DNA of 64,000 nucleotides from Trichoplax sp. H2 (Eukaryota): NCBI GenBank assembly GCA_003344405.1, contig NOWV01000019.1, positions 1 through 64,000 on the forward strand, in the 5' to 3' direction. Below are positions 2,950-5,611 of the stretch, in pieces (the first letter of the stretch is position 1; every line of letters begins with the position of its first letter). Below the pieces are notes generated by a model that saw nothing but the letters and a program-made list of their open reading frames with translations, was not told the origin of the DNA and did not search any database. The position numbers and the translations under genes are program-made.

Positions 2950-5220
2950 ATCTTGTCGTTAAGCTATTTTTTAGTAAAGTCTATCATTTGAGTCTTTAAT
3001 AATTGCTGATATAGAAGAAATTCGCTATAAAAATATTAGATGTAAACTTGCATGTGATTATCTTAGACTTATGGACTGAAATTGGAGTAACTCACTAGAC
3101 CCATAATGTTGATATCAGACAGTTTAAATGATATAAATGTGTTATTAAATCAACGTGCAAATTCTGCATTTAATGTTATCTTGTGATACAAATTAAGATG
3201 TTATAGTGTTTGATACTTCAAGATATTTGAGCTATCGAGATAATTTAAACAAAATTAGCCATCACAGTAAGCTATCATGTAAGCAAAATCATATATAATT
3301 ATTTGAGACTTACGCGCTGAAATCGGAGTAATCGCCGAAGCCATAATGTTGATATCGTATAGTATATATTATAGAAAATATATAATTATATCAGTTCTTA
3401 GTTCCGTATTTGAAAGTTTTTTATCTTAAAGCTAATTTGCAATACTTATTGCGATATAATAGTGAGCGATAGTTCTTGATATTGGAGGTATCAAGATAAT
3501 GTAAACAAATTCAATTATCAAACTATTGTAAAGCAAGGCCATAAATGTTTGTTAAAGACTTACACGCTGAAATTGTAGTAGTTGTTAGAGCGATAACATT
3601 GATATCACGATATCATACAGTGTAAATAATAAAAAATGAATACGTTAATCAGTTTTTAATTCTGTACTTGAAATTTATCTTATCACAAAGTTGATTTGTG
3701 ACACACATTACGAAATTATGGTATTTGATAGTTCATGATATTCGAAATATTGAATAACATAAACAAATTAACTATTAAAGTATCATAAAAACAAAGTCAA
3801 TATATGACTATAAAAGACTTACGCGCTGAATTCGGAGTAATCGTTAGAGCGATGATGTTGATATCATACAGTATAAATGATAGAAAATTTATAATAAACA
3901 TATTGTGATATTTTATCATTTGATGGTTCGTGATAGCCGAAATATTGAGATATTATAAACAAATTTTAATATTAAACTTTGACAACATAAAGTCACATAT
4001 ATAATTAAATAAATTATTAAACGATCATAAAAATTATATATAATAAATTAAGACTTACACGCTGAAATTAGAATATTCGTTAGAGCGATGATGTCGATAT
4101 CATACATTTTAAATGACAGAAAATATACAATAAAGACGTTATGGTATTGTTTTGTTTGATAGTTCGTGATATCGAGATAATATAAATAAATTTAATTATT
4201 AAGTTATCATAAAAACAAAGTCAGACAAGATCATTTGAGATTTATATGCTAAAAACCGGAGTAATGGTTACAACCATAATTTTGTCAAAACATAGTGTGA
4301 GTAATACAAAAAGTATAATTAAAATTGAATACATTATAATTTTTTAGTATTCGACAGATCATAATATCCTAAATATCGAGATAGTATATACAAATTTAAC
4401 TATTAAGCTATCATACAAACAAAATCAAATTTTATCATTTAATTAAGATTTATATTCTGAAATTGGAGTAATTATTAGAGCCATAATGTTGGTATCATAA
4501 AGTATAGATGACAGAAAAGGTATAATTAGCACTGTTCTTTATTCTTAATTTAACAGTTATTACGTCATAAAGCCGATTTGCCACACATATTGCGATATTT
4601 CAATTTTCGATAACTCATAATATCTGATCTATCAAGTTAACTCTTACGAACAAATTTAATTATCAAAGTATCATAATAATAAAGTCATATATACATATTT
4701 GAGACTTACGACTGCAAGCTGTAATACAATTTGAAACCATGATGTTCGAGTTATAAAAGGGAAATAAGAAAACAAATATGAATTGAATTAATTCTTAAAT
4801 ATTCTATATTTCATGCAATCTTGAAACATAGCTTGTTTTTATTCGCTGTATCATTTAGTATTTCAAAGTCAATGATATTTGATATATATGTAGAGCCAAT
4901 AGACAAGAATTTTCTAACAAAGTTTTACAATTATTAAAAACATTGGTATATATGATTACGCTCGTCCAAACTCATTGTAATTGGAAAGATAACTAAAATT
5001 GAGGCTGCGTTTCATATGACACGCATATTGAATAAATTAGTGTAAATTGCCATCTGACATCAGACCTTAAGATTTACATTAAATATCATCTTATTTCAGG
5101 GCTAACTTATAATATCATATAGTCATTTCAATACGTTATGCTTGATGATATTTGAGGAATCGAGATGATGTGCAAAATTAATCTCTAATACAAAAAAGGA
5201 TTCTTTGCAAGTGTTTACAC
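2950..5220 (-). repeat. Diverged tandem array (units ~190-260 bp), each core carrying a splice acceptor, 2-3 nt and a splice donor
   Basis: Core agacttacRcgctgaaatYggagtaatc...ccataatgttgatatc recurs near 3065, 3306, 3556, 3815, 4051, 4238, 4446 and 4702; more decayed units toward 5210. Confidence 0.85.
3314..4061 (-). CDS. Four candidate 3-nt microexons: CGT 4059-4061, CGC 3823-3825, CGT 3564-3566, CGC 3314-3316
   Basis: Minus strand reads ttcag|CGY|gtaagtc in each unit; downstream of a phase-0 donor at 5432; no transcript evidence available. Confidence 0.5.
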
Positions 5221-5431
5221 GTCGGTCTTTTTATCAAAAATTGCAATCTCAGTGTTCCCTGTTCTAATTTTTTCAGGAGTTGTTATTATTAAATATTTAA
5301 AATTGCAATATGACTAGATAAAGGCTAAAGCGAATAGCTGTTTGGATGATCTTAATAATAAAATTGATCAAAGCATGTAGTACCGGTACCCAAAGAAACT
5401 AATCATTTTGATTAATATTTCCTTAACTTAC

Positions 5432-5611
5432 CTTCGCTTCCATAATTTTGCGAGCTTCTTCCTCATCAATAATATTCTCTTCTGCCAAATCACTTAATTT
5501 TTCCTCATCCATGAATTCTGGAGAGTATTCTTCATCAGATTTATCTTGTTCAGCATTTGCAAGAACAATGGCACAGAAGAGCGTAGTAATCAATATGATC
5601 TTGGTATTCAT
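5432..5611 (-). CDS. First coding exon of a secreted prepropeptide (signal peptide + acidic pro-region)
   Basis: MNTKIILITTLFCAIVLANA-EQDKSDEEYSPEFMDEEKLSDLAEENIIDEEEARKIMEAK ending at AAG|gtaagt (phase 0); hydrophobic core with A-N-A cleavage motif. Confidence 0.8.

Follow-up and report, generated by a model that had tools for sequence, protein, structure and literature searches.

Micro-exon genes (MEGs) of Schistosoma encode secreted proteins, with the signal peptide in a conventional first coding exon that is followed by very short exons in multiples of 3 nt and by much longer introns. Exon lengths of 3-81 bp are given in the abstract of a MEG paper (10.1101/2023.06.21.545858). Here we describe a gene with this layout in another phylum. 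It lies on the minus strand of a 64,000-nucleotide stretch of Trichoplax sp. H2 (GenBank assembly GCA_003344405.1, contig NOWV01000019.1, positions 1 to 64,000 of the forward strand), which we call the window. Alternative splicing is the hallmark use of MEGs. Like the Schistosoma genes, the Trichoplax gene has been missed or mis-modelled by standard annotation. No sequence similarity to the Schistosoma MEGs was found with the 60-residue first coding exon as the query. A further difference is that four to five consecutive exons here each hold one codon for the same amino acid, each in a duplicated intron unit; the available passages of the MEG paper describe no such arrays. It is highly probable that the locus is the 5' part of a Trichoplax MEG for a secreted modular precursor. 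The finding extends the MEG kind and is an extreme case for splicing.

Two splicing systems come close to this one. The recursive splicing ratchet point, AG/GTAAGT, has a 3' splice site that abuts a strong 5' splice site and leaves nothing in the mRNA. At our locus, a 3' splice site likewise stands beside a strong 5' site, and partly spliced intermediates were seen in RNA. Unlike ratchet points, the three letters between AG and GT stay in the mRNA in all four live units of the array. The second system is the isolated 3-nt microexon, published for MAP4K5, Drosophila homothorax and cytohesin-1. As here, a single in-frame codon is spliced as its own exon. In the accounts available to us, those exons are single, usually alternative, and located in ordinary genes, whereas the exons described here sit in tandem duplicated units that write a homopolymer tract. 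An array of successive single-codon exons is not described in the literature that we searched. A search for nuclear microexons in placozoans also found none, returning only a paper on a 1-bp exon in mitochondrial cox1 and unrelated papers.

For the protein product, the closest described systems are the multi-copy prohormones and arminin-like precursors of placozoans and cnidarians, which have a signal peptide, an acidic region, and basic sites between or before the peptides. In PMC12013895, a signal and acidic layout is described for the arminin-like Trichoplax genes Ta 55945, 56030, 60631, and 64402; TRIADDRAFT_60413 and TrispH2_002920, the two public models of our gene, are not named in its main text. 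Our gene shares the signal peptide and acidic region of these precursors, and its Arg tracts would be the basic sites. It differs from them in having five Arg instead of a dibasic site, in splitting the site itself into one-codon exons, and in having no amidation Gly in the visible part of the gene.

An earlier note on this DNA, made from its letters, had proposed that a signal-peptide and acidic exon ending at a phase-0 donor at 5432 is followed by duplicated units that build a poly-Arg tract one codon per exon. RNA was used to examine this. Four sequencing runs (X1, X2, X5, and X13) were mapped as contigs on positions 1-6200. X13 is recorded as an RNA library and is the only RNA library used. 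Binned X13 depth reaches 368 at the first coding exon and 977 in bin 1-207, which holds 153-182; most intron bins have 0-13. X1 and X2 have even depth across exons, introns, and flanks (about 50-220), rising to 10^3-10^5 in two repeat segments, and an X5 contig is unspliced across both borders of the first coding exon. These three runs were therefore treated as DNA-like. No spliced form was found in X1, X2, or X5 and, since the runs are DNA-like, the missing spliced joints are uninformative on splicing.

The X13 contig over the first coding exon departs from the window exactly at 5432 and continues for 57 further letters, 30 of which read CTTTGTGCGACGGCGTCTACGGACTGAAAG on the plus strand. In the mRNA sense, the contig runs from 5432 into CTT TCA GTC, then CGT, AGA, CGC, CGT, and CGC, and then ACA AAG, which translates as LSVRRRRRTK. 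The first nine letters match the 9-nt exon of unit 1 at 8 of 9 positions, with Ser replacing Ala. Next come the unit 4, 5, 6, and 7 triplets, ordered as in the genome, and an additional AGA follows the first of them. The protein read from X13 is thus ...MEAK-LSV-RRRRR-TK.... Therefore, the Arg run that the earlier note expected directly after MEAK is present, but it is preceded by LSV (LAV in the window) and holds five Arg, one of which, AGA, has no exon in the window.

A second X13 contig, record 14, ties the codons to the introns of the array itself. This contig (705 nt, depth 13.1) matches 2959-3566 with 26 differences, continues with six letters, and then resumes at 4059 for about 90 nt, a length obtained by arithmetic on the record length. 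The six letters are GCGTCT on the plus strand, or AGA CGC in the mRNA sense. Record 14 consequently joins CGT (4059-61), AGA, CGC, and CGT (3564-66), while the intron ahead of unit 4 and those behind unit 6 are retained. It looks like a partly spliced pre-mRNA in which the codons are joined at the predicted exon borders. These two contigs, independent of each other but from one RNA library, support the central proposal of one-codon Arg exons. Tandem one-codon exons are joined into mRNA, and the three units in which the donor GT reads AT are skipped, as the earlier note had supposed. Short introns between the triplets can leave before the longer introns that flank them. One further observation concerns 4141-4761, toward the 5' side of the 648-nt intron in which dead units 2 and 3 lie. 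X13 depth there is 44-67, compared to 0-13 in other intron bins. Slow excision, a stable fragment of the intron, or an alternative end of the transcript could explain this.

The array consists of eight units, spaced 262, 208, 187, 236, 259, 250, and 241 bp apart, which are 68-83% identical to each other over 29-266 bp. Four live units carry TTCAG-CGY-GTAAGTC, three have a dead donor, and the first provides the 9-nt exon. All positions given by the earlier note hold, including the live triplets CGT, CGC, CGT, and CGC and the triplets AAT, CAT, and TCC of the units with AT for GT. The first unit adds to that description, since it holds a 9-nt exon and not a 3-nt one. There, the homologous acceptor is followed by two letters and not three, and an AG seven letters upstream gives an in-frame 9-nt exon at 4710-4718. 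The homology of unit 1 to the other units is suggested by the alignment.

The splice signals of the live units are more conserved than their surroundings. When the four live units were aligned, 15 of the 16 columns of the core ttcagCGYgtaagtct were invariant, and only the third base of the codon varied. Of the 195 ungapped columns outside this core, 43% are invariant, and in no other stretch of 16 columns does the number of invariant ones exceed 12. Given this 43% background, the chance of 15/15 invariant core columns is about 3e-6. The earlier note had put forward such an alignment as a check. Each live triplet is preceded by a block of about 55 nt with a pair identity of 0.71-0.73, and a CTAAC branch-like site lies about 20 nt upstream of the AG in three of the four live units. 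An Rfam search of 1-9400 gave 0 matches at E<=1, so the conserved intron blocks are not explained by a known snoRNA or other RNA family.

The motif is also concentrated at the array. All four exact matches to TTCAG-NNN-GTAAGTC in the 64-kb window fall inside it. Allowing up to 2 mismatches raises the total for the window to 11, with 6 inside the array. Over 100 shuffles, the count averaged 4.89 and peaked at 10, so that none reached 11. The shorter AG-NNN-GTAAGT occurs 6 times on both strands, with 4 occurrences in the array, compared to a mean of 2.4 in 200 shuffles. Across the whole window, only two weak unit-like matches lie outside the array, at 2489-2517 and 16059-16176. The latter, the only one outside the gene, is 68% identical to unit 5 over 121 nt and is probably chance or a relic. 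The DNA-like runs cover the array to the same depth (50-182) as the single-copy flanks; the unit is therefore no high-copy dispersed repeat. A genome-wide dispersal of the repeat, which the earlier note named as a finding that would count against it, is thus not what depth and the window indicate.

Before the RNA was considered, the default reading was that the units are a decayed intronic tandem repeat with chance splice-like words, that 5432 is spliced straight to a downstream exon, and that the triplets are never in mRNA. The units are only 68-83% alike, and three of the eight are visibly decayed. Tandem Repeats Finder misses the array: its 12 rows for 1-12000 include none over it. The units are too diverged for that program, and the alignment was therefore anchored on the triplets. 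We consider this explanation extremely unlikely, given that the X13 letters after 5432 hold the triplets in genomic order, that record 14 links them to their own introns, and that the flanks have drifted around invariant splice sites and invariant first and second codon positions. A direct splice from 5432 to a downstream exon without CGY triplets is not what the X13 contig contains. Table 1 gives the positions of the array units and of the other features of the locus.

Table 1. Positions in the window of the exons, array units, and one genomic joint at the Trichoplax locus
Feature	Position	Strand	Signals and evidence
5' UTR exon E0, 3' end	9208..9238	-	donor gtaagtc at 9207-9201; start further upstream, at least ~9271
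First coding exon E1	5432..5613	-	acceptor ag 5615-5614, ATG 5611, 60 codons, phase-0 donor AAG/gtaagt
Array of eight tandem intron-plus-microexon units	2923..4825	-	unit alignment
9-nt exon E2, unit 1	4710..4718	-	attacag/CTTGCAGTC/gtaagtc; window LAV, RNA allele LSV
Dead unit 2	4454..4456	-	ttcag AAT ataaat, donor G->A; skipped in RNA
Dead unit 3	4246..4248	-	tttag CAT ataaat, donor G->A; skipped in RNA
3-nt exon CGT (Arg), unit 4	4059..4061	-	motif; X13 record 14 joins 4059 to 3566, six letters between
Joint with possible extra letters	4001..4002	.	X1 and X2, skips 0, letters between not known, shorter side 71, one contig per run
3-nt exon CGC (Arg), unit 5	3823..3825	-	motif and X13 RNA
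3-nt exon CGT (Arg), unit 6	3564..3566	-	motif and X13 RNA
3-nt exon CGC (Arg), unit 7	3314..3316	-	motif and X13 RNA
Dead unit 8	3073..3075	-	ttcag TCC ataagt, donor G->A; skipped in RNA
21-nt exon E7, probable	2556..2576	-	aactag/ACGAAGTCCTTGGCTAACTCG/gtaagag; TKSLANS
30-nt exon E8	153..182	-	tcgtag/.../gttaga; ENLNVLEKKL; X13 loose ends 151/153 and 183

Another possible explanation of the RNA is that the X13 contigs derive from a paralog, retrocopy, or chimera with the Arg codons uninterrupted in its DNA; the contigs would then be uninformative on splicing of the array. A near-identical first exon (TrispH2_011760) and a 60% paralog do exist, X13 is about 4% off the window and includes an AGA codon without a window exon, and RNA libraries can hold DNA. 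Record 14 argues against such a source: it contains 608 nt of intron downstream of unit 6, with the 26 differences, and the stretch of about 90 nt upstream of unit 4, and on both sides the passage from intron to joined codons falls exactly at a predicted exon border. To assemble such a de Bruijn contig, reads across both borders are required; the Logan word length is about 31. No such joint is present in the DNA-like X1 and X2 among the joints listed. A contiguous DNA source is, in our judgment, very unlikely.

The first coding exon (E1) begins the secreted protein, and both of its borders are marked by X13 loose ends. By inspection, its start is signal-peptide-like, with a K-containing N-region, a hydrophobic core, and ANA ahead of the acidic part. 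The 40 residues after the predicted signal include 17 acidic and 5 basic residues, for a net charge of -12. The translation (5611-5432) is 100% identical to residues 1-60 of TrispH2_002920 (Trichoplax sp. H2, hypothetical protein), and on this ground we regard the window as nuclear DNA of a placozoan. Behind 5614, the X13 contig has a loose end of 65 letters. Thirty of these were compared, and 29/30 match 9209-9238, with an exact 16-nt match at 9218-9233. Since the match lies beside a gtaagtc donor, it identifies a 5' UTR exon 3.6 kb upstream. On the minus strand, the gene extends from at least about 9271 to beyond window position 1, in a window that is AT-rich (28-40% G+C). Seven of the eight coding exons inside the window are 3-30 nt long, and all are multiples of 3.

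TrispH2_002920 (77 aa, H2) and TRIADDRAFT_60413 (115 aa, H1; T. adhaerens) both run past 5432 into intron sequence. Both public models are wrong after the first coding exon and are credible only up to 5432. Neither contains the triplets, which agrees with the expectation in the earlier note that standard annotation would miss such exons. Catalogues of placozoan secretory peptides built on such models may therefore miss the gene. No paper was found with either model name or with two short peptide words; the supplements S8 Text of PMC12013895 and Table S5 of PMC10580291, with their lists of placozoan prepropeptides and peptides, might contain the gene.

Relatives were sought with the 60 residues of the first coding exon as the protein query. 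A search at near lengths gave 2 matches among 3 candidates, a search at longer lengths gave none among 69 candidates, and a 3-sequence profile at longer lengths gave none among 2255. In a representative protein library, 3 proteins were found at E<=0.001. Two are from Trichoplax (P0002 and P0003), whereas P0004 (1255 aa, E 7.7e-4) matches weakly, over 31 residues. These searches turned up no full-length spliced protein. P0002, P0003, and P0005 point to a small family, and its other models probably have wrong ends beyond the first exon as well. A copy that is 97% identical over the first exon, TrispH2_011760 (partial), falls in one 90%-identity cluster with TRIADDRAFT_60413. The 60% paralog over the first exon, TrispH2_008524 (P0003), has 66 aa and lies on another contig.

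Downstream exons were sought by blindly scanning 5431 to 1 on the minus strand for YAG, 3n letters (<=45 nt, no stop), and GT[AT]AG. The scan gives exactly 7 candidates: besides the four triplets and the 9-nt exon, these are a 21-nt exon (2576-2556) and one of 30 nt (182-153). The 21-nt exon E7 is probable. After the last CGC, the RNA reads ACA AAG, which is alike to the start of E7 in 5/6 letters, and a second X13 fragment reads ACG AAG TCC TT after a second Arg tract. X13 loose ends around the 30-nt exon E8 add KSLDSS before it and V-RRRRR-F-TKSL after it, and these five Arg are all CGC. Thus, the product is modular, (TKSL..S)(ENLNVLEKKL)(V)(R5), at least twice. In X13, one TKSL...KKLV module lies between two five-Arg tracts, and the beginning of another TKSL module follows the second of these. 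KSLDSS differs from the KSLANS of the window, so this fragment may come from another module or another allele. Two segments in the long intron before the 30-nt exon, 1237-1803 and 2003-2520, have a depth of 10^3-10^5 in the DNA-like runs, compared to about 100 in their flanks, and contigs of single-copy depth omit exactly these segments, with joints 1236>1804 and 2002>2521. They look like high-copy insertions similar to miniature inverted-repeat transposable elements (MITE-like), present in the window allele and absent from the runs.

The AGA codon of the RNA points to a difference in unit number. No AG-AGA-GT was found in the window between units 4 and 5 (4058-3826) by eye and by pattern. Unit 4 contains a half-unit duplication around 4001|4002, the place of the joint seen in X1 and X2. 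This suggests that the X1 and X2 genomes and the source of the RNA carry an extra unit with an AGA exon at 4001|4002, which the window allele or the assembly has lost. The assembly thus has 4 one-codon exons and the RNA 5 Arg codons, which could reflect either assembly collapse or a different allele. Further joints in the DNA-like runs are 2818>5402 (skips 2583, with 32 letters between), 3140>3840 (skips 699), 3888>3686 (goes back 203), and 4388>3281 (27 letters between). They have short sides (22-37) or inserts that are not known, and they were not relied on; they may be structural variants of the array or mis-joins.

Several points weigh against our reading of the locus as a MEG with one-codon exons. 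The same blind scan has 57 matches elsewhere in the window, or 0.47 per kb per strand compared to 1.29 at the gene. The scan is therefore not very specific, and it is the RNA that carries weight. That RNA comes from a single library, seen as assembled contigs and not as raw reads, and 30 of the 57 letters after 5432 were available for comparison. X13 and the window are about 4% different in introns, and the RNA is therefore from another allele or strain. ACA AAG in the RNA stands against ACG AAG in the window, as KSLDSS does against KSLANS, so not every RNA fragment comes from exactly this copy. The AGA exon of the RNA is not located in the window. Finally, the function of the Arg tracts, the sequential order of splicing, and the origin by unequal crossing-over are points that we infer, and the 3' end of the gene lies outside the window.

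What the Arg tracts do was considered in the light of the modules. They may be polybasic convertase sites that would free peptides of about 18 residues, the TKSL...KKLV modules. We favor this because the Arg tract recurs between modules, and we put its chances at about even. The second tract and the repeated module fit inter-peptide processing sites better than a single cationic mature peptide. It is also conceivable, although rather unlikely, that the microexons are real but the Arg tracts are retained, either in cationic arminin-like antimicrobial or cell-penetrating peptides or in a periodic poly-Arg secreted protein. The signal peptide and acidic region with its net charge of -12 give an arminin-like layout, as described for other Trichoplax genes in PMC12013895. 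The modules between the tracts are weakly charged (3 basic and 2 acidic residues), so the Arg residues would carry the charge in such a product. Recurrence of the tract between repeats of one module, in contrast, is the layout of a multi-copy prohormone. In the part of the gene inside the window, there is also no C-terminal Gly or cationic tail to be seen. The absence of homology to longer proteins, found with the first exon as the query, also speaks against retention, but this evidence is weak.

Several consecutive 3-nt exons with full introns are an extreme test of splice-site pairing. On our reading, the exon order is the 5' UTR exon, the signal-peptide and acidic exon, the 9-nt exon, four 3-nt Arg exons (five Arg codons in RNA), the probable 21-nt exon, and the 30-nt exon. 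Each 3-nt exon is one Arg codon in its own duplicated unit of about 190-260 bp, with each live unit supplying a GTAAGTC donor, a TTCAG acceptor and, in three of four, the CTAAC branch-like site. U1 and the 3' splice-site factors are not expected to occupy sites 3 nt apart simultaneously. An acceptor and a donor this close would therefore have to be recognized sequentially, intron by intron. Each intron of about 240 nt may be recognized as a unit, with its two adjoining sites used one after another, as the comparison with recursive splicing suggests for a 3' splice site beside a strong 5' site. The strong consensus signals and the block of about 55 nt upstream of the live triplets may aid splicing. 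Introns do not leave in a simple 5' to 3' order, since record 14 still contains the upstream 648-nt intron. As exon definition cannot work over 3 nt, this locus of an early-branching animal is a natural substrate on which to study sequential splicing by intron definition.

Tandem duplication of intron-plus-codon units as the origin of the array is directly suggested by the homology of the units. The array may grow and shrink by unequal crossing-over of such units. A homopolymer tract can gain single residues by intron-plus-codon duplication and lose them by one donor mutation, and three dead units are visible here. More broadly, it is possible, if doubtful, that placozoans write and vary polybasic processing sites through arrays of one-codon exons. 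The number of Arg would then follow the number of units per allele, perhaps also skipping, and the 3-nt gap would be spliced by a sequential, recursive-like pathway. Under this proposal, arrays of this kind would occur generally in placozoan secretory genes and have escaped annotation; the second five-Arg tract of our gene and the paralog TrispH2_008524 are possible examples.

Two other regions of the window were noted. On the plus strand, long open frames at 43452-47397 lie behind a long low-complexity N-terminal region and presumably encode a RecQ/BLM-type helicase, a family name that we take from motifs in the translation. On the minus strand, similar hydrophobic open frames occur in two pairs, about 6 kb from each other, at 21275-22041 and 27083-28254. 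This looks like a tandem-duplicated gene for a multi-pass membrane protein.

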